From NCBI GenBank assembly GCA_937900185.1, contig CALCCW010000021.1, positions 1-14,578 of the forward strand: DNA of 14,578 nucleotides. Direction: 5' to 3'. A model generated the notes under the pieces. That model saw only the letters and a program-made list of their open reading frames with translations, was not told the DNA's origin and searched no databases. Positions 1,193-14,578 of this stretch are shown here, piece after piece; position 1 is the stretch's first letter, and each line of letters begins with the position of its first letter. The position numbers and the translations under genes were made by a program. This DNA is from an uncultured candidate division Zixibacteria bacterium. GTDB lineage: Bacteria; Zixibacteria; MSB-5A5; GN15; FEB-12.

Positions 1193-2317
1193 ATGTCATT
1201 ATTATTAGAAGTAATTGAATGGATGGACCCATCCGGCGATGAAATGATTTACCGTATTCCGCAGGAAGGTTCTGCCGATTTTAAGTTAGGTGCTCAACTT
1301 ATAGTACGAGATAGTCAAATGGCTTTCTTTTTCAAAGATGGGCATGCTGCCGATACATTTACGACCGGACGGCATACGCTTTCGACATTAAACGTTCCCA
1401 TTTTGACCAGATTACTGGCTTTCCCATTTGGTTTTAATTCACCATTTCGTGCAGAATGTTATTTTATAAATTTAAAAACGTACACCGATATGAAATGGGG
1501 TACAAAAAATCCGGTTACATTTAAAGACAGTAAACTTGGTTTGATTCGTTTGCGTGGTCATGGTGCTTTTACAATGAAAATTAAAGAACCGATTCTATTT
1601 TTAAATTCTATTGTTGGTCGTCAAGCAAAATTTACAACTTCTGAAATTCAAGATTATCTTCGTGATGTTATTATCGCACGTATGAATGATATGCTTGGTG
1701 AGAAACTCGATACGATTTTAGATCTCCCGTCAATCTATACCGAACTTGCCGAAGATTTTAAAGAATTAGTCAGCTCTGAATTTGAAAAATATGGTTTAGA
1801 ACTTGTAGATTTTTATATCTCTTCAATCACTCCTCCTGAAGAAGTAACCAAAATGATTGACCAGCGTTCCGGTATGGAAGCTGTTGGCGATTTAGATAAG
1901 TTCCTCAAATTTGAACTGGCTAAAGGGTTTGGAGGCACAAGTGGCTCAGGTTCTGCCGGAGCAAATATGGGGATGGCAGCCGGTATTGGTATGATGGTAC
2001 CTTCTATGATGCAAAAAGTATATTCACCGGATCAAACCGAATTAAAACGTGAACCGGTTGCTACTGTTACCTGTCCAAAATGTCATACCGACACACCCGA
2101 ACAGTCTCGTTTTTGTTACCGATGCGGTCATCAGATGATTGTACAAAATATCTGTCCTGCCTGTCAGAGTTCACTTCCGTCAGAAGCAAAATTCTGCTTT
2201 GAATGCGGTTTGAAGCTTGATGTGAAAACAACCTGTCCGCATTGTTCGGCTGAACTAATTGCAGGTTCCAAATTTTGCGGCGAATGTGGTAAGAATATAG
2301 ATGGCGATAATAGCTAA
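1193..2317 (+). CDS. SPFH/band-7-like protein of the YdjI/COG4260 type with a Gly/Met-rich linker and three tandem C-terminal zinc ribbons (zinc_ribbon_2-like)
   Basis: A strong RBS (AGAGGAG) sits 7 nt upstream of the ATG. The N-terminal ~240 aa ([21 protein letters not shown]...[17 protein letters not shown]...[14 protein letters not shown]...) resemble the COG4260 family of SPFH-domain proteins with a C-terminal Zn-ribbon, recalled from memory. [25 protein letters not shown] linker follows. The C-terminus has three ~28-aa repeats, each CPxC-x9-FCxxCG. The family assignment is from memory, not a search. Confidence 0.65.
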
Positions 2318-3701
2318 AAAAGAAATAAAAGGATTCCGTATCGGTGTCAGCTGCCCCGGATGCGGGGGAGAACTGGAACTTGAGGATAATTTTTTTGCTG
2401 TTGAGTGTCATCATTGCGGTTCTGCTCTTAGGCTAATAATGCCCGATGCTCCGCCTACTTTTGTTGCCGAAGTACAAATTACAAAACAGAAAGCCAGATA
2501 TGCGATTGACCGGTATCTCAAAGATGCCGGTAAACCGCTTACGCATTCAGATTATCAACTCAAACGGATGTATTACCCTTACTGGAAAGTTGATGCGATA
2601 CTTTTTCGACTCAGAAAGGGTGTTGAAAAAAAAGTTGTATCTTCTGAGTATTCTGATGATAATGAAAAAACGTACGAAACAGAAAAAATTGATATTTCTC
2701 TTTCACCGTACACTACAACACTTACTGCCGGAATGAACTATGACGGACTGCCTGATACTTTGGGGCTTCGCTCTGAATATCTCAAACTTTTCCCTTTATC
2801 TGATGAAAAAATTGACGAGAACTTTGATTTGCTGCCTATTATAAAATCATGGGAAGAAGTCAGAAAATCTCTCCATCAACATTTGGGAGCGATAAGCTCA
2901 TTTGATACAAATCTCTTTGGAGTAAATAAAACTGATATCTATGGACCTAAAGCAATGCTTCTGTATTTTCCATTTTTTCTTTTTGATTTTTATGATACCG
3001 ATGGATTTAATCGTTTTGTTATAGATGGTGTTACCGGTCGAGTGTTAAATCATATTACTTCTTTGGAGTTAGCCCCATCGGAGACATCTGAAACAGAAAA
3101 AATCACTTTGGGCGAAATATCTATTGTCTCACATCGATGCAGCAACTGCGGAGAAGATTTACCGTCGGAAGAATCATTGGTGTACATCTGTAAAAACTGT
3201 CAGGTTATAACAGATTTAGAACCCGGCGTTGAAATAGACACAATTCGGCAAGTAGTGCATCCGGTCAATCCTAATAACATCTTGGTACCATTTTGGGCAT
3301 TTAAAATAAAAGATATTGATGAATCTGTGTTAAAATCTATTTTTGGCGGTATATATCGGTCTGACAAAGTAGTTATTCCGGCTTTTCGGGTTCAAAACTA
3401 TAATGCTATTTTTAAACTAAGCAAAAGAATGTCCGCTGCCTTTCCTCAATTTGATTTTGAAAATATAATCACTATGGATAGACAATATGCTCCGGTGGAT
3501 TTACCGTTAAACGAAGCTCAGGTACTTACCGAAGTATTTGTAACAACCGATCAATATAAAAAAAATATCACTCATAAAAAGACAGAAAATCATTTTCAAT
3601 TTGATGATATAACTCTTTTTTATGCTCCCTTTCATTTGGAAAGTTATTTCTATGTCGATTCAGTTTTGCAGGCAGTAACTTTTGAAAAAAACCTCATTTA
3701 A
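2301..3701 (+). CDS. Internally duplicated zinc-ribbon protein of unknown function, translationally coupled to the upstream SPFH-like gene
   Basis: The start overlaps the upstream stop by 17 nt (ATGGCGATAATAGCTAA). An N-terminal CPGCGG-x15-CHHCG ribbon opens the first half. A second ribbon, CSNCG-x12-CKNC (residues ~280-300), opens a second half. The halves share hydrophobic motifs: [12 protein letters not shown] vs [12 protein letters not shown], and [16 protein letters not shown] vs [17 protein letters not shown]. There is no obvious TM helix and no recognised catalytic motif. Confidence 0.6.
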
Positions 3702-4070
3702 TATTCCTCTGACTTAGTAAACAAAACAGACGATAATTTTAGTTTTCAAATTGAGCCGTCAGGAACCCATTCCTGACATGAATTGTAGAGAACAGGCATG
3801 CCTCAACCCTACAAAAATAAGCTGAACAGCAGAAAATTTGGAACTAATTGCCTCCTATGTAGTAGAATTCACAACATCCCAAAACTGCCATTTATTTCAC
3901 TTGCGATTGCACTTGCAATTACCTATTTTTGAGCGTGTAAAAATGAATTTTAAGGATAAAAAATAATTATTAATATACCGTATTCCATCTTTTTAACTAT
4001 TTCTCCAAGTCATACTGAATTTGTTGAAGTATGTTCATGTTAAATACGGTATTTTTATATGGAGTGAAGA

Positions 4071-6704
4071 GTGTACAGATATTACAAACTATTGTTACTC
4101 ATCGTAACCGTTTTTCTTTATCTGCCGGTAGTCGGGTTTGCCGATATACCGGAATTTTTTGACCAACCCGATTCTGGCTATACAACCAATGTTGTGACAG
4201 ATATTATTACTCACGATAGTGCCATCTGGTTTGCCACCGATGAAGGGTTGAACTTTTCTTATGACGGCGGACAATCCTGGTTGTTATATGATAACAGTAA
4301 CGGATTAGTCTCCTCATCTATTTCAGCTTTATTTTCATTGCCATCTCGGTTTGGACAAAGAATTTGGGCAGCAACCAACCATCAGGAAAATATCGGAGGA
4401 GTCATTACCGGAATTTCCGATGGTGTTTCATACTCAGACGACAGCGGTCTCACATGGACTCAGGTTGATTTTGAGACTGCTCCAAATGACATTCCTTATG
4501 TATGGGGTGGAGACAGAACTATTTTTGATATTACCGGTCATTATGACCCAAACAATGACTCCTTGGACAATTGGGTGTTCTTTACTGCTTTTGCAGGCGG
4601 CTTTTTAGCCTCGCGTGACGGCGGTGAAAGTTGGAAACGAATTTTTCCTACCGTTGCAGATTCTATTCAATTTGAGGTTCCTAATGCTCAACCGTCTTTA
4701 CGAAATAGATACTTCTCCTGTGTTGCCGATACATCGCATGGCGATACTCTTATAGTATGGGCTGGGACTGCCGGCGGTATTTTTCAATATGTTTTTGCAG
4801 AACCCAAAGATAAACCGTTTACCAAACATGTGACCGATATAGAATTTTGTGACAGTTGTGGAACAGGAGATTCAAGTTTTGTTTATTATGGCGGATTAGA
4901 AGGATTTACTCGTGGTAATAAATTAACCGGTCTTGCTGTCAGTAAATTTATATCAGATGGTCTACTGGGAAGTCAAATAACATCAATGCTTGATTTTGGC
5001 GGTAAACTTTTCGTTGGTACTGCAGCTAGTGCTGATGACTACACTTCAAAAGGTCTTGCTGTTTCAACAGACTTTGGTGAGAGCTTTACTGCCACATATA
5101 ATCAACCTGCTTTTGAAGGTGCCGGACATAGAATTTCAGATTTTGCGGTTATGAATGACCGAATATATATGGCTCTTGAAGAAAATGGTTTGTATGTTTC
5201 CAATGACACCGGAGCGAACTGGAACTATGTTATAATAGACACCCTTGATACTACTCCTGACAATCGCCGTAATGTTGTAAATGCTTTAGAAGCTGTCGGA
5301 GACACTCTCAACATTGGTACCGACTCCGGGTTGGTCAGGCTGTATCTTTCCGCATCGGGAGCAGTCGACTCCTCACTGCAATTTGTTTTCCCAAGCAATT
5401 CAACATCCTCAACAAAAATTATCAAGGTAAAAACTCAACCATTAAGTAATGGTGATGTCAGGTTATGGACAGTCAATGTTCCTCTTGATACCGTACTTAA
5501 TCTTGCTACTGCTATAACATCATATTCACTTGACGGAGGTCAAACATTCCTGCCGCGATTTAATGTAAACGGACTTAACAGAAACATTGGTTTTATTGGT
5601 GATACAGCAGTTATCATTGGTGACTACGGTACGGTATATACAGATATCGGCGGTGTTTTGCCGTCAGAATCATTCCCGATATATCAAAAAGTTCCTCTTT
5701 CTGTAGATACTTTAACTAACGATACAACTTTTGTCGTTCTTGATTCACTAAATGCCGATTCGTTAACTTCTATAAAAATAAAAGGTGATACTGTAATTGT
5801 CGGTGGCAACAAAGGCTATGCTGTTTCTTTAGACAGAGGTAGCTCTTTTAATATTACCAGAGTAAATACAGAGTTTCTTGCTGCTGATTTTGTATTGAAT
5901 TATACATCTGCCATTCAAGGTATTGACGGTGATTGGGTTCCTGCTTTGGAAGTAGAATATAATGATTCATTTGTTTTTGCCCGTGTTTGGGCATCAGTTA
6001 GACCTACCTTTGGTGGTGTTCCGGGTATTTCGGTTAGTTGGGCTGCACCTGTTGTAGATACATTAGGTGATACTTTAAGATATGAAAGATTATGGGGGAG
6101 AGTACATGATGAATTTGCATGGAATTTCGCCCTTGCTTCTGATACTATATTTGCCGCAACAGATAACGGTCTAATATATGGCATAACAGATTCTCTCCTT
6201 TTTGGTGATATTACCTATGATTGGACAACAGTTGAAATGCTTGATTCAACAGGTGCATCGCTTCTATTAGAAGGTACTCCGGTATATGCGGTAGAAGTTG
6301 ATGACAACTATATATGGGCTGGCACAGGTGACAGAACAGTGAGGATTGATCGTTCAGACCTTACATTATCAAAAGCATTTTATGTCGAAGACCCTACTGA
6401 TGAAGTGTACGCCTTTCCAATTCCATTTAGTCATGCTAACTCAAATAGACTTGATTTTCATTTTATTGTAAAACAGCAGGCAGCTATTACTATTGAAATT
6501 TATGATTTTGCCATGCATTTGGTTAAACGTGTTGTAGACAATGTTACCTACGACCCGGGAATCTATCCGACCGCCGGTGCAAGCAGACATGTTTGGGATG
6601 GCTTAAACGGCAAAGGCGATGAGGTCGCTGTCGGGATGTATTACTTTAAAATTATATATTCAACCGGTGAAGTTCACTGGGGTAAAATTGCGGTTATTCC
6701 ATAA
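4071..6704 (+). CDS. Secreted BNR/Asp-box repeat (beta-propeller) protein with a T9SS-type C-terminal sorting domain
   Basis: GTG start with GGAG RBS 6 nt upstream. An upstream in-frame ATG at 4059 is followed immediately by a stop. The signal peptide is VYRYYKLLLLIVTVFLYLPVVGFA. Multiple Asp-box motifs (S-x-D-x-G-x-T/S-W/F) are present: SYDGGQSW, SDDSGLTW, SRDGGESW, STDFGESF, SNDTGANW, SLDGGQTF, SLDRGSSF. The C-terminal ~95 aa (AFPIPFS...ITIEIYDFAMHLV...WDGLNGKGDEVAVGMYYFKIIYSTGEVHWGKIAVIP) match the T9SS type-A / FlgD Ig-like sorting-domain pattern. Confidence 0.8.
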   Translation: MYRYYKLLLLIVTVFLYLPVVGFADIPEFFDQPDSGYTTNVVTDIITHDSAIWFATDEGLNFSYDGGQSWLLYDNSNGLVSSSISALFSLPSRFGQRIWAATNHQENIGGVITGISDGVSYSDDSGLTWTQVDFETAPNDIPYVWGGDRTIFDITGHYDPNNDSLDNWVFFTAFAGGFLASRDGGESWKRIFPTVADSIQFEVPNAQPSLRNRYFSCVADTSHGDTLIVWAGTAGGIFQYVFAEPKDKPFTKHVTDIEFCDSCGTGDSSFVYYGGLEGFTRGNKLTGLAVSKFISDGLLGSQITSMLDFGGKLFVGTAASADDYTSKGLAVSTDFGESFTATYNQPAFEGAGHRISDFAVMNDRIYMALEENGLYVSNDTGANWNYVIIDTLDTTPDNRRNVVNALEAVGDTLNIGTDSGLVRLYLSASGAVDSSLQFVFPSNSTSSTKIIKVKTQPLSNGDVRLWTVNVPLDTVLNLATAITSYSLDGGQTFLPRFNVNGLNRNIGFIGDTAVIIGDYGTVYTDIGGVLPSESFPIYQKVPLSVDTLTNDTTFVVLDSLNADSLTSIKIKGDTVIVGGNKGYAVSLDRGSSFNITRVNTEFLAADFVLNYTSAIQGIDGDWVPALEVEYNDSFVFARVWASVRPTFGGVPGISVSWAAPVVDTLGDTLRYERLWGRVHDEFAWNFALASDTIFAATDNGLIYGITDSLLFGDITYDWTTVEMLDSTGASLLLEGTPVYAVEVDDNYIWAGTGDRTVRIDRSDLTLSKAFYVEDPTDEVYAFPIPFSHANSNRLDFHFIVKQQAAITIEIYDFAMHLVKRVVDNVTYDPGIYPTAGASRHVWDGLNGKGDEVAVGMYYFKIIYSTGEVHWGKIAVIP

Positions 6705-6714
6705 TTAAGGAGAG

Positions 6715-7707
6715 ATGGTAATGAAAAAAATATTATTATTTGCAGTTCTGACATTATTCTGTCTGTCAACATCTCTCTTAGCTGAAGATGGTGATGCAGG
6801 TTATGCCGGCAGTTTTTTACAAGTTCCAATTGGTGCCAGACCGACAGCAATGGGTGGTGCATTTATTTCTATTTCAAATGATGCCTCCGGAAGTTTTTAT
6901 AATCCTGCCGGGATGTCTATAATCAAAAAATCAATTTTTGCTACTTCTTATAGAGCTATGCAGCTTGATAGAAAACTTGGATACACGGCGATTCTATTTC
7001 CGACTCAAGGAAATTCAGTTCTTGGATTTAGCTGGCTTTATGCCGGTTCGGGATCAGTAGATGCTCGAAATGATGATGGTGATTTATTAGGGAATACGTT
7101 AGAACAAAATAATCACCAAATTTCTATTCTGTTCTCAAAAAGATTTGAAAAATATTTATCTTTAGGATTTAAAGGTTCTTATTTGTACTCTAAGTTTGCT
7201 GAAATGTCTGTCTTTTCTGTTGGTATTGATTTAGGAGCAACTTTATATATAAGCCGGTTGTTCAGCAGAGAAAAAAGAGATTTAATGTCTATTCAGGATA
7301 TACAAGTTGGGCTTGTCGTGAGAAATTTAGCAGCTAATTTTAAGTGGAATAATGATAATTATTTGGCTGCACATAGCGGATCTGCTTTTGGAGGTTCTGA
7401 TCATATTGATGATTTCCCTGTAGAAATCGGCATTGGCGGTTCAGCAAGATTTTTTAATAGAAAACTTTTATTGAGTTCAGATATTGTGAAAAACAGCAAA
7501 GAAAATATTATTCTACATGCCGGAGGAGAATATTTTATTACCAAACAATTTGCTGCTCGTGTAGGATATACCGATAGAAGCTTGACTACCGGATTTGGCT
7601 ATGTTTTTAATTTAGATAAATTTGGCTTAGTGTTTGACTATGCCTATTCATCAGAAAAAGTTGGTGAAGGTTCGGAACATATATTTTCATTTGACATATT
7701 ATTTTAA
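6715..7707 (+). CDS. Outer-membrane beta-barrel protein of the FadL-like PorV/PorQ family, probably T9SS-associated
   Basis: AAGGAG RBS. The signal peptide is MVMKKILLFAVLTLFCLSTSLLA. The N-terminal motif IGARPTAMGGAFISISNDASGSFYNPAGM matches the FadL/PorV-family signature (GLGRAYSGEGA.ADDAS....NPA). The protein ends in Phe (FDILF), as is typical of OM barrels. It lies immediately downstream of the T9SS cargo gene. Confidence 0.6.
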   Translation: MVMKKILLFAVLTLFCLSTSLLAEDGDAGYAGSFLQVPIGARPTAMGGAFISISNDASGSFYNPAGMSIIKKSIFATSYRAMQLDRKLGYTAILFPTQGNSVLGFSWLYAGSGSVDARNDDGDLLGNTLEQNNHQISILFSKRFEKYLSLGFKGSYLYSKFAEMSVFSVGIDLGATLYISRLFSREKRDLMSIQDIQVGLVVRNLAANFKWNNDNYLAAHSGSAFGGSDHIDDFPVEIGIGGSARFFNRKLLLSSDIVKNSKENIILHAGGEYFITKQFAARVGYTDRSLTTGFGYVFNLDKFGLVFDYAYSSEKVGEGSEHIFSFDILF

Positions 7708-7716
7708 AGGTGAAAA

Positions 7717-8610
7717 ATGAATAATTTGAAAATTGCAATTCTCATTGTGACTCTCCTGTCAGTCGGTCAGATTTCTGCCCAAGATGGGTTAGCCTTGCTG
7801 CAGACAGCACAAGGTGCTAAACAAGCAGGGTTTGGAGAGGCTGTTGTATCTCTTGCAAACCAAGTAAATGGGACCCATTATAATCCTGCCAATATGATAT
7901 CTATTGACAAGTTTACCGCATCGTTTGGACATACTGAATACTGGGAAAATATTAATTTAGAGTCAGGTTTTTTTGCCGCTCCTCTTACATCTAAAGTAAA
8001 TCTACATGGCGGTATCCGTTTTGCCGCTGTGAATGAACTGGAAAATAGAACTCGTGCTACCGAAGAACCTATTAGTTTATTTGACTTTCATGATATATCT
8101 TTCAAAACAGGACTTACGTATGTTAAGAGTGAAAAACTCTCTTTTGGTTTTGCTTTTGGATGGTTTTTTGAAAAAAATGAACTTTGGAACGGTTCTGCTT
8201 TTAATGTCGATTTAGGAATGCATTATCAAGCATCTCCAAACATTCAACTTGGGGCTGCTGTGACAAATCTTGGTTCCTCGTTTCAATTGACAGCTGATGG
8301 TCAAGAAAGTTCTAACGATATTTCTCTTCCCACAAGGTATTCCGTCGGCGGCAGCTATCAATATAATAAATTTATCGGAGCAATTGATGCTGTAATTATC
8401 AACGATGATTTTAAACTGCATGTTGGTACAGAAGCACATTTGCATGAGATGTTTGACGTTCGTGCCGGATATATGTTTAACTATGACAGTAAGGATTTTT
8501 CTGTCGGGGCAACTTTTACAAAACGAAATATTAAAATAGATTATGCATTTGTACCGTATTCTAATAATTTAGGATCGACACATCTGTTTAATTTCACATT
8601 CAGCATATAA
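7717..8610 (+). CDS. Second FadL-like PorV/PorQ-family outer-membrane beta-barrel protein, a paralog of the upstream gene
   Basis: AAAGGTGA RBS. The signal peptide is MNNLKIAILIVTLLSVGQISAQ. The N-terminal motif QGAKQAGFGEAVVSLANQVNGTHYNPANM and the C-terminal region (DVRAGYMFNYD...DYAFVPYS) parallel the upstream protein. The gap to the previous gene is 9 nt. Confidence 0.55.
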   Translation: MNNLKIAILIVTLLSVGQISAQDGLALLQTAQGAKQAGFGEAVVSLANQVNGTHYNPANMISIDKFTASFGHTEYWENINLESGFFAAPLTSKVNLHGGIRFAAVNELENRTRATEEPISLFDFHDISFKTGLTYVKSEKLSFGFAFGWFFEKNELWNGSAFNVDLGMHYQASPNIQLGAAVTNLGSSFQLTADGQESSNDISLPTRYSVGGSYQYNKFIGAIDAVIINDDFKLHVGTEAHLHEMFDVRAGYMFNYDSKDFSVGATFTKRNIKIDYAFVPYSNNLGSTHLFNFTFSI

Positions 8611-8636
8611 AATCTTTTTAGGAGTGTTATAAGATT

Positions 8637-9755
8637 ATGGCAAAATACAAAATCGCCTGGCTGCCCGGTGACGGTGTCGGCAATGAAGTTTTGGAAGCAG
8701 CAAAAATAGTCCTCGATAAATTAGAACTTGATGCCGAGTACATTCATGGCGATATAGGCTGGGAATTCTGGAAAACTGAAGCAAATCCGCTTCCTGATAG
8801 AACTATCGACCTTATGAATAATACTGATTGTGCTTTGTTTGGTGCGATTACTTCTCTGCCAAAGGAAGAAGCCGAAAATGAACTTATTCCCGAACTGCAG
8901 GGGAAAGGACATGTATATGCATCGCCGATTGTCAGGCTCAGACAAGAGTTTAATCTCGCAACAAACTTACGTCCGTGTAAGGCATATATCGGAAACCCTC
9001 TGAACTATAGAGATGATATCGATATAGTTGTTTTTAGAGAAAACACTGAAGGGCTCTATGTCGGTTTAGAATTTCATCCGCTTCCTCAAGAATTACGTGA
9101 CTCTATACATAAATATAACAAAAAAATGGCTCGCTTTGACAAAGTTGCCAATGAAGATTTGGCGATTTCTATGCGTATTTTCTCTCGTGAAGGATGCCGT
9201 TCTATTGTGACAGATGCTTTTGAATATGCTAAAAAAACAGGACGGAAATCTGTCACGGTTGTTGAAAAACCAAATGTCATCAGAGAAACATCAGGGCTCA
9301 TGGTTCGCACAGCTCGTGAAGTTGCTAAAAACTACCCCGGTATTGAACTTTGGGAAACAAATATCGATGCTATGTGTATGTGGCTTGTAAAAAATCCGCA
9401 GAATTATTCTGTCATCGCAACATCAAATATGTTTGGTGATATTGTCTCAGACCTATGTGCCCAACTAATTGGTGGTTTAGGTTTTGCGTCATCGGGCAAT
9501 ATCGGTGAAAAATATGCAGTCTTTGAACCAACTCACGGTTCTGCTCCAAAATATGCAGGTCAATACAAAGTCAATCCTATGGCGACACTTTTGACTGTCA
9601 AAATGATGCTGGACTGGCTTGGCGAAACTGAAATGGCTCAAAAACTTGAAACTGCTATCTCTGAAGTTATTGCTGAGAAAAAAGTACGCACCTACGATAT
9701 GGGCGGTTCCAATACGACCCTTGAAATTGGCGAGGCTGTCGCAGCAAAACTGTAG
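8637..9755 (+). CDS. Isocitrate/isopropylmalate dehydrogenase superfamily enzyme, most similar to isocitrate/homoisocitrate dehydrogenase
   Basis: TAGGAG RBS. N-terminus is IAWLPGDGVGNEV. Central region is RLRQEFNLATNLRPCKAY...DIVVFRENTEGLY (compare E. coli Icd ALRQELDLYICLRPVRYY...MVIFRENSEDIY). Metal/substrate loop is NMFGDIVSDLCAQLIGGLGFASSGNIG (compare IDH NLYGDILSD...GGLGLAPSANIG). Confidence 0.85.
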   Translation: MAKYKIAWLPGDGVGNEVLEAAKIVLDKLELDAEYIHGDIGWEFWKTEANPLPDRTIDLMNNTDCALFGAITSLPKEEAENELIPELQGKGHVYASPIVRLRQEFNLATNLRPCKAYIGNPLNYRDDIDIVVFRENTEGLYVGLEFHPLPQELRDSIHKYNKKMARFDKVANEDLAISMRIFSREGCRSIVTDAFEYAKKTGRKSVTVVEKPNVIRETSGLMVRTAREVAKNYPGIELWETNIDAMCMWLVKNPQNYSVIATSNMFGDIVSDLCAQLIGGLGFASSGNIGEKYAVFEPTHGSAPKYAGQYKVNPMATLLTVKMMLDWLGETEMAQKLETAISEVIAEKKVRTYDMGGSNTTLEIGEAVAAKL

Positions 9756-9785: not shown

Positions 9786-9821
9786 AAGCAGGTTGAATTT
9801 ATTTCAACCTGCTTTTTTATT
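9786..9821. terminator. Bidirectional Rho-independent terminator between convergent genes
   Basis: Stem AAGCAGGTTGAA (9786-9797), loop TTTATT, stem TTCAACCTGCTT (9804-9815). TTTTTTAT follows on the plus strand and an A/T-rich run follows on the minus strand. The stem overlaps the rdgB stop codon (9804-9806). Confidence 0.7.
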
Positions 9822-10409
9822 TAACCTATTTATAATCAGAGTACGGACTTCCTGAAGTGCCAACCCTCTATGAGATATTATATTTTTCTCTTCAATGGTC
9901 ATCTCTGAAAATAGTTTTTGTGATTGCGGGTAGAAAAAAATCGGGTCATACCCAAAACCATCTCTATCGTCTATAGATTCCGCTATGAAGCCCTCAGCTA
10001 TGCCGTCGACGGTTTCAGTAGTAGACTCATCCCAACAGATAGTCATCACACAGCGGAATCGTGCCGTTCGTTTCTCAATAGGAATGTTTTTTAAATCATC
10101 AATAAGCTTTTTGCTATTATCTGTATAAGTTACATTTTCTCCGGCGTAGCGGGATGAGTAAACCCCCGGAGCTCCACTTAAGGCATCTACTTCAAGTCCG
10201 GTGTCGTCTGCCAAGGCGGGGAGACCGGTAAATTCATAAATTGCTTTTGCCTTAAGCAGAGAATTTTCTTCAAGAGTTGTGCCGGTTTCTTCAATATCGG
10301 GAAACTCTAAAAAATCATCACGAGTCATAATAGTGATAGGCAGGTCATCCAAGAGATTTTTCATCTCTTTAATTTTGTCTTGATTATTGGTAGCTAATAC
10401 AAGCTGCAT
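9804..10409 (-). CDS. rdgB: Non-canonical purine NTP pyrophosphatase (dITP/XTP pyrophosphatase, RdgB/Ham1 family)
   Basis: Begins MQLVLATNNQDKIKEMK. C-terminal region reads ...DGFGYDPIFFYPQ...TIEEKNIISHRGLAL, which are classic Ham1/RdgB motifs. Length is 201 aa. Confidence 0.9.
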   Translation of the reverse strand: MQLVLATNNQDKIKEMKNLLDDLPITIMTRDDFLEFPDIEETGTTLEENSLLKAKAIYEFTGLPALADDTGLEVDALSGAPGVYSSRYAGENVTYTDNSKKLIDDLKNIPIEKRTARFRCVMTICWDESTTETVDGIAEGFIAESIDDRDGFGYDPIFFYPQSQKLFSEMTIEEKNIISHRGLALQEVRTLIINRLNKKAG

Positions 10410-10917
10410 AATTTGTCTATTCCAATTTTAGTTTTTTCTTTAATCATAAATTAGTAGTAAACGGATGATATACGCAATCATTTTTTGTAAATTTTTCCGC
10501 AATAGTCATTGCGAACGGAGTCCGCAATTAGCGGAAGAAGTGTGGTAATCTTATTTTTGAGACCTGCACTTATTCCACTTCCATACAAGGAAATGACAAT
10601 TTTAAAAATATTAAAAGCAGAATGAGCATCCTTTCCGCCTTGGCGGACTCAGTAGGGGACAAGCAGCCTGTTCCTCTAAGACAGCCTCAATGCCCTGTCA
10701 GAACACAAATGGAAATGTTGAGGCATGCCTCAACCCTACAATTGTTTCCCCGAGGAATTAAGGGGTGAGTTTATTTTCATAGTGTTAGGGCTGGACTTCG
10801 TGTCAAGCACGGAGATGAGTTCAAGAGATAGAGATGTCTGGTTTCTCTCAATTATACTTTTTTAGAAGCGGAACCGAGACCTACTATTTTATAAATGGAA
10901 GTGTATATCATGATTTA

Positions 10918-14464: not shown

Positions 14465-14578
14465 AAAAAAAAAAGAAAAAGAGAAAGAGACAGAGAAAAA
14501 AAAAGAAAAGAAAAAAAAAGAGAGAAGAGTAGGAGTAAGAACTAGTCAATAATCGCGAAGCAGATTAACATGAGAACA
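14465..14578. other. Low-complexity poly(A)/AG-rich tail and unrelated sequence downstream of the adapter. It is not contiguous genomic sequence.
   Basis: The run AAAAAAAAAAGAAAAAGAGAAAGAGACAGAGAAAAAAAAAGAAAAG... sits directly after the adapter. This is typical of read-through junk or a chimeric join. Confidence 0.85.

Follow-up and report, generated by a model that had tools for sequence, protein, structure and literature searches.

A phylum-wide gene trio in Zixibacteria combines a double-propeller protein of PorZ-like architecture with two PorV/PorQ-family outer-membrane barrels

PorU and PorZ are the two type IX secretion system (T9SS) components with an uncleaved C-terminal domain (CTD), seated on two proteins of the outer membrane, PorV and PorQ, respectively, and porU and porV are adjacent in Porphyromonas gingivalis and Flavobacterium johnsoniae. 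PorQ anchors PorZ and PorV anchors PorU as dedicated pairs (PMC5562754, PMC10947112). The structure of PorZ comprises two seven-fold propellers and an 85-residue CTD, and was described as "reminiscent" of BT4663 (PMC5121618), while type B cargo has cognate PorP/SprF-like carriers, with sprF adjoining sprB (PMC9143113). Here we describe a related arrangement in an uncultured bacterium of Candidatus Zixiibacteriota (Zixibacteria). Within positions 4071-9755 of a 14,578-nt stretch of contig CALCCW010000021.1 (assembly GCA_937900185.1; the whole stretch is hereafter the window), four consecutive open reading frames (ORFs) on the + strand encode an 877-residue double-propeller protein ending in a CTD, two outer-membrane proteins (OMP1 and OMP2) of the PorV/PorQ family, and an isocitrate dehydrogenase (IDH)-family enzyme. 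On balance, and with moderate confidence, we favour a phylum-wide surface complex in which the propeller protein would be carried over the outer membrane and held there by a cognate PorV/PorQ-family barrel, as in PorZ-PorQ and PorU-PorV. The features of the locus are as follows.

3702-4070, no strand assigned: upstream intergenic region of 369 nt without an ORF; presumed promoter site, with GGAG at 4061-4064.
4071-6704, + strand: propeller gene, 877 residues; GTG start with GGAG 7 nt upstream.
4071-4142, + strand: predicted signal peptide, residues 1-24 (ending VVGFA, followed by D), assigned by eye.
4158-6386, + strand: two tandem beta-propellers, residues ~30-772, with ~14 four-stranded blades, from AlphaFold2, Foldseek and Pfam.
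6387-6704, + strand: CTD beta-sandwich, residues 773-877, plus the stop codon; T9SS-like but atypical, ending in WGKIAVIP.
6715-7707, + strand: OMP1 gene, 330 residues; PorV/PorQ-family barrel, with a probable true start at 6721.
7717-8610, + strand: OMP2 gene, 297 residues; second PorV/PorQ-family barrel.
8637-9755, + strand: isocitrate/isopropylmalate dehydrogenase-family gene, 372 residues; Pfam Iso_dh.
9786-9824, no strand assigned: G+C-rich 12-bp hairpin (9786-9814) with T-run; likely bidirectional terminator.

Synteny was surveyed in 80 loci of genomes that are GTDB species representatives and in further loci from assemblies. The order propeller-OMP1-OMP2 is intact in 66 of 66 loci with enough sequence, with gaps mostly of -4 to 17 nt within the trio while the flanking genes vary. 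Three deeply divergent lineages, at 30-35% identity, share this gene order, and their barrels fall into the same two orthologous groups. An initial annotation of this DNA had proposed that the barrels are dedicated to the protein encoded upstream of them, which is borne out in the sense that the phylum keeps the three genes together throughout. The same annotation held that PorV-type shuttles are normally shared and encoded elsewhere, a premise that overlooks PorQ-PorZ, PorV-PorU and sprB-sprF; since such dedicated pairs are known, the arrangement is less unusual than it was taken to be. Full-length homologues of the 877-residue protein, 40-99% identical and ~870 residues in length, were recovered from metagenome-assembled genomes of Candidatus Zixiibacteriota/GN15, and a profile search of 1.84 billion representatives, with follow-up, detected neither full-length orthologues outside Zixibacteria nor intermediates to Bacteroidota PorZ. 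Distant full-length relatives with a source name were likewise from Zixibacteria, and KSB1, Latescibacteria and Calditrichia gave only shorter or partial relatives. The protein is present in single copy across the phylum, with housekeeping envelope genes (murI, amidase, smpB) as its neighbours.

The predicted architecture of the 877-residue protein is that of PorZ, i.e. two seven-bladed propellers followed by a C-terminal beta-sandwich CTD (AlphaFold2 model; pLDDT 87.8, pTM 0.81). At the N-terminus, the model displays a hydrophobic helix (residues 2-16) and a low-confidence linker (residues 19-29), and in the family alignment the signal region is the least conserved part of the propeller family. 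Seven Asp-boxes (S-x-D-x-G-x-x-[WFY]) were identified at residues 63, 122, 181, 332, 377, 486 and 586, which, together with a match to Pfam BNR (PF02012) of 27.8 bits against a cut-off of 27, agree with the original description of a BNR/Asp-box protein. A Foldseek search of the PDB with the propeller model placed the sensor domains of BT4663/BT4673 first (E 6e-20) and PorZ second (5M11; E 4.4e-17), with GH74 xyloglucanases ranking after them, and the family profile also retrieved BT4663 by sequence (4a2l, E 1e-9). The analogy with PorZ, BT4663 and families of Asp-box propellers makes a glycan or other surface ligand the most likely binding partner of the propellers.

From the family alignment, the CTD was found to be the most conserved region of the protein: 19% of its columns are invariant, as against 7% and 3.2% in the propellers, and it holds 20 of the 58 invariant positions in 12% of the alignment length. 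Such a pattern would be expected of a permanent protein-protein interface. In type A CTDs, by contrast, the translocon-contacting surface is reportedly poorly conserved, and in the SprA-PorV-CTD structure the CTD binds loops of the carrier barrel (PMC10994853). When the last 105 residues of 28 orthologues were scanned singly, the C-terminal end of the PorU model matched 25 (best E 9e-5) and the PorZ model 19 (best E 5.7e-6), always in register (~664-741 of 757 positions in the PorZ model and ~997-1078 of 1095 in the PorU model). FlgD_ig (PF13860) matched all 28 CTDs (best E 3.8e-10), with the window CTD at 24.4 bits and several homologues (30.1 and 34.1 bits) exceeding the cut-off of 27, and CHU_C (PF13585) weakly matched 27 (best E 1.8e-4; window CTD 15.2 bits, cut-off 27). 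Matches to the sorting-domain models were sub-threshold throughout, comprising 12 orthologues for TIGR04183 (type A; cut-off 23 bits, best E 0.017, up to 20.7 bits in distant relatives) and three, weakly, for TIGR04131 (type B; best E 0.011); Pfam Por_Secre_tail (PF18962) matched a single orthologue CTD. For the window protein, neither TIGR model gave a match at E<=1, nor did TIGR04183 for its isolated CTD. Of the type-A-like sorting domain in the initial annotation, the C-terminal beta-sandwich is present, but it goes unrecognised by the type A model.

Because the protein is single-copy and phylum-wide, and because its CTD is its most conserved region, we consider it probably a core envelope component, and the label of "cargo" given to it initially is probably wrong. 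An ordinary secreted cargo would here be a GH74- or sialidase-like Asp-box protein, either a glycoside hydrolase or a glycan-binding enzyme, exported by a type IX route that uses its own shuttle barrels and, once the CTD is cleaved off, either set free or covalently attached. The Asp-boxes are consistent with such a protein, as are weak sequence matches to GH74 enzymes (7kn8, E 5.9e-6; 2cn2, E 0.004), the position of GH74 structures just behind PorZ in the Foldseek results, and scores on the "F510_1955 family glycosylhydrolase" model of 46.8 bits for the window protein and up to 95 in relatives (cut-off 175). However, occurrence as a single-copy, phylum-wide protein amid housekeeping envelope genes is unlike that of niche-specific hydrolases, and a cleaved signal would not be expected to form the most conserved region. 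Furthermore, no hydrolase model reaches its cut-off with this protein, in which no catalytic residues were identified. An ordinary cargo is therefore unlikely.

Both barrels exceeded the cut-off of the "PorV/PorQ family" model (NF033709; OMP1 112.3 bits and OMP2 116 bits, cut-off 90), as expected from their first description, and 19 of 19 OMP1 orthologues matched this model (best E 5e-36); a protein identical to OMP1 is also named "PorV/PorQ family protein" by NCBI (P0129). Scores on the equivalog models for PorQ (NF033711; 76.9 and 67 bits, cut-off 220) and PorV (NF033710; 52.2 and 42 bits, cut-off 250) were well below threshold for OMP1 and OMP2, respectively. The window barrels lean toward PorQ, whereas for the OMP2 orthologue of locus L086 the PorV score exceeds the PorQ score, so that neither assignment can be made. 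The AlphaFold2 model of OMP1 (pLDDT 85.4) predicts a FadL-like 14-stranded barrel that encloses an N-terminal segment, and its best Foldseek matches were to F. johnsoniae PorV within the SprA translocon (8gl6_F, E 2e-12, TM 0.68; and 6h3i_F; TM 0.66-0.68), 8gl6_F representing the substrate-CTD-bound state. These were followed by FadL/TodX/TbuX and then by BamG. Pfam PorP_SprF (PF11751, cut-off 22.3) gave no match for either window barrel; one OMP2 orthologue, in L101, passed it marginally over a partial stretch (23.6 bits), which illustrates the closeness of the PorP/SprF and PorV/PorQ families. With respect to membership by sequence in PorZ, PorU, PorV, PorQ and the type A and type B CTDs, all scores fell below curated cut-offs.

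OMP1 and OMP2 share 25% identity (BLASTP, E 1e-12), and their family profiles align over the full length (E 1.6e-38, 23% identity). The tandem barrels had been described as a duplicated pair, and they are paralogues; judged from their sequences, however, they are old ones, constituting two ancient orthologous groups and not a recent duplication. The two barrels are taken to be non-redundant, since both orthologous groups are kept everywhere. A further pairing was identified in one lineage (L101:2549-10008; also L089 and L086:12-2069), where a gene for a 1153-residue CTD protein is followed by that of a third PorV/PorQ paralogue (PorV_fam 224 bits). In L101 the full order is a TonB-dependent-receptor-like gene, the 1153-residue CTD protein, the third paralogue, a gene for citryl-CoA lyase and lastly the propeller trio. 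The 1153-residue protein possesses a T9SS-like CTD and no Pfam domain, and the pairing of a CTD protein with a PorV-family barrel therefore recurs in the phylum. Its identification as a PorU sortase was considered and rejected, given that it matched no peptidase and that its matches were to the CTD only. In Zixibacteria SM23_73_3, an inserted gene for a metallo-beta-lactamase (MBL)-fold metallohydrolase (L086:8038-8877) separates the orthologues of OMP1 and OMP2, with the IDH gene still following OMP2.

Alternatively, the FadL-like barrels might belong to a different outer-membrane machine, either as a BamG-like accessory of the machinery for beta-barrel assembly (BAM) or as a channel for hydrophobic compounds, with the propeller protein as an extracellular or periplasmic partner. 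BamG is a FadL-family barrel anchoring the surface lipoprotein BamH, and these Bacteroidota BAM subunits are reportedly conserved in six of the seven other phyla of the Fibrobacteres-Chlorobi-Bacteroidetes (FCB) group (PMC12611786). Consistent with such a role, BamG structures were among the Foldseek matches of OMP1 (9hiv_F, E 4e-8; 9n2d_B; 9hjm_F), the BamG model (cut-off 250) weakly matched 3 of 19 OMP1 orthologues (best E 7e-4), and the BamI model (cut-off 370) gave 13-15 bits on propeller proteins over a single Asp-box region (E 0.014-0.04). Conversely, the PorV/PorQ models match far more strongly (5e-36 vs 7e-4), and BamI is a six-bladed lipoprotein largely confined to class Bacteroidia (PMC12578637). 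The propeller protein is not a lipoprotein, and its CTD matches those of T9SS components, leaving a machine outside type IX secretion improbable. A kinship of the window proteins with BamG or BamI was set aside, the matches being marginal only.

In the surface complex that we favour, the signal peptide would export the 877-residue protein to the periplasm, from where a type IX-like route would take it across the outer membrane with the CTD beta-sandwich as recognition element. Rather than being removed, the CTD would stay bound to the extracellular loops of its cognate carrier barrel, resulting in retention at the cell surface. The cognate carriers would be the products of the two genes directly downstream, of which one probably carries and anchors the propeller protein and the other may have a second role in the same complex. 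A number of observations weigh against this proposal. The window protein reaches no T9SS sorting-domain model. On the PorZ equivalog model (NF052228) it gives no match, and its relatives score 12-32 bits, i.e. at most ~32 against a cut-off of 260, with the score falling on the CTD in every tested protein except one. By sequence, the propellers group with Asp-box, sortilin, Ycf48 and "F510_1955 glycosylhydrolase" proteins, and not with the Reg_prop type of PorZ. A single CTD cannot obviously occupy two barrels, so that the role of the second is left unexplained. T9SS core genes were not found among ORFs of at least 950 residues in ~1.1 Mb of loci (mostly Zixibacteria), which comprise local flanks only, and a literature search on type IX secretion in Zixibacteria, including the SprA/Sov translocon, the PorKLMN motor and the PorU sortase, returned nothing. 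Should Zixibacteria lack a canonical SprA/PorKLMN apparatus, the tandem barrels behind CTD proteins might constitute a self-contained, two-partner-like device for export and anchoring, in which the second barrel would be the translocation partner of the first, although we regard this as highly doubtful.

The fourth gene encodes a full-length member of the Iso_dh family (PF00180; E 7.6e-89, 298.8 bits, residues 5-368), for which the substrate-specific equivalog models of isocitrate (ICDH), homoisocitrate (HICDH) and isopropylmalate (IPMDH) dehydrogenases all remained below cut-off, the best being AksF2 homoisocitrate dehydrogenase at 336 vs 540 bits. In 52 of 58 loci this gene comes next after OMP2, most often at a distance of 11-45 nt (5-248 nt overall), and it persists there in L086 and L087, both of them deep lineages, despite the inserted gene in the former. 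Its description as a co-transcriptional companion of the envelope genes is thus correct as regards a real and conserved adjacency, but the gene is missing from the site in six loci with room for it and in lineage L085, where the trio stays. Owing to these losses, and to a citryl-CoA lyase gene just upstream of the trio in one lineage, we read the gene as encoding a central-metabolism enzyme, a conserved but dispensable neighbour that is possibly co-transcribed with the trio through read-through from the module and takes no part in its function; no functional link to the envelope module was found. That the enzyme is instead a functional member, for example making or modifying a surface-glycan or lipid precursor for the propeller complex, is very unlikely, as the close spacing without an intervening terminator, the persistence in deep lineages and the sub-threshold equivalog scores which would fit it are set against the losses with the trio intact, an identity of 74-93% throughout the phylum, as is usual for enzymes of core metabolism, closest solved relatives that are NAD-dependent isocitrate dehydrogenases and homoisocitrate dehydrogenase, and the tricarboxylic acid-cycle neighbourhood suggested by the citryl-CoA lyase gene.

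Additional features of the IDH-family protein were also observed. Its closest solved relatives are shorter by ~35-40 residues, and many of the model and PDB matches break into two stretches around residues 130-170, which suggests an insertion in this region. In a complete Zixibacteria chromosome (L009:11464-11529), all that was detected of the IDH gene behind OMP2 is a 22-residue, 91%-identical remnant, which could represent a pseudogene, a masked stretch or a rearrangement.

The four genes are separated by 10, 9 and 26 nt, with a Shine-Dalgarno-like motif ahead of each start, and may constitute a single transcription unit. Positions, strand and spacings agree with those given in the initial annotation, as does a first terminator lying after the IDH gene. 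For OMP1, a start at ATG 6721 is more likely than one at 6715, since an AAGGAG motif is better spaced from 6721 and the orthologues are 327-328 residues long; the first gap would then be 16 nt. The hairpin at 9786-9814, 30 nt past the IDH stop codon, was the sole strong terminator-like site in the scan and overlaps Ham1, a convergent gene, at the latter's 3' end, and the 9786-9824 element is likely a bidirectional terminator common to the IDH-side genes and Ham1. Across the window as a whole, the terminator scan was not above chance (six sites vs 4.3 expected, with none between the four genes), nor was the promoter scan, and Rfam and tRNA scans were empty, the 3702-4070 region likewise being without an Rfam match.

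Elsewhere in the window, positions 1193-3701 encode a 374-residue Band_7/SPFH protein with C-terminal double zinc ribbons and a 466-residue zinc-ribbon protein, whose genes overlap by 17 nt; this gene pair lies upstream of the trio in approximately half of the related loci. Positions 1-1192 and 10410-10917 contain no credible ORF, Rfam match or tRNA. The latter, which sets Ham1 and murI 508 nt apart, is missing from some relatives, the two genes being adjacent in L001 and L007, and its comparison with the matching gap of the close relative L005 detected no conservation. At the window end, an A-rich low-complexity tandem repeat (14465-14529) lies downstream of a response-regulator gene.

Nearly all work on type IX secretion concerns Bacteroidota, and to this the cluster adds a compact, operon-level case from a further FCB phylum. 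It could help to examine how CTDs are matched to carriers, for what reason PorZ-like proteins retain theirs, and what form the ancestral attachment module had. Since the standard models for type A and type B overlook such CTDs, T9SS-dependent surface proteins are probably under-counted in candidate phyla.

Comparison with known systems places the locus at varying distances from each. The GH74 xyloglucanases and related Asp-box double propellers share the Asp-box repeats and the double seven-bladed propeller, whereas the window protein is below all hydrolase cut-offs and is found in a context of housekeeping envelope genes and not of polysaccharide utilisation. BT4663/BT4673 of Bacteroides thetaiotaomicron, the best match by both structure and profile-sequence comparison, also have a double seven-bladed propeller followed by an immunoglobulin-like domain. 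However, these are periplasmic, dimeric, glycan-binding sensor domains on a histidine kinase, while the window protein lacks transmembrane and kinase parts and terminates in a CTD of secretion type. In the type B SprB-SprF system, a cargo-specific FadL-like carrier or anchor barrel can likewise be encoded beside the cargo gene, but there the barrel is of the PorP/SprF family and here of the PorV/PorQ family, and the window CTD falls below the type B model. PorU-PorV corresponds in that the retained CTD of PorU docks on a PorV-family barrel and that the end of the PorU model is matched by the window CTD family (25/28); it differs in that the Zixibacteria protein has no C25-type peptidase domain and that the barrels score 52 and 42 bits against a PorV cut-off of 250.

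The PorZ-PorQ pair of the Porphyromonas gingivalis attachment complex shares two seven-bladed propellers with a C-terminal beta-sandwich of ~85-105 residues, and a 14-stranded barrel partner of the PorQ/PorV family, which there serves as surface anchor; the window CTD family also weakly matches the CTD region of PorZ. Conversely, the Zixibacteria propellers belong to the Asp-box type and stay well short of the cut-off of the PorZ model, and as far as its sequence is concerned the 877-residue protein is not a member of the PorZ family. Two barrels are present in place of one, all three genes are adjacent, and the phylum is not Bacteroidota. PorZ, with its retained CTD and PorQ-family anchor, binds anionic lipopolysaccharide and feeds the PorU sortase; for the Zixibacteria protein, the invariant adjacency of PorQ-like genes and the peak of conservation in the CTD lend at most indirect support to a comparable behaviour. 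Taken together, the locus appears to be a local form of an anchoring arrangement already on record, and not a new kind of system.

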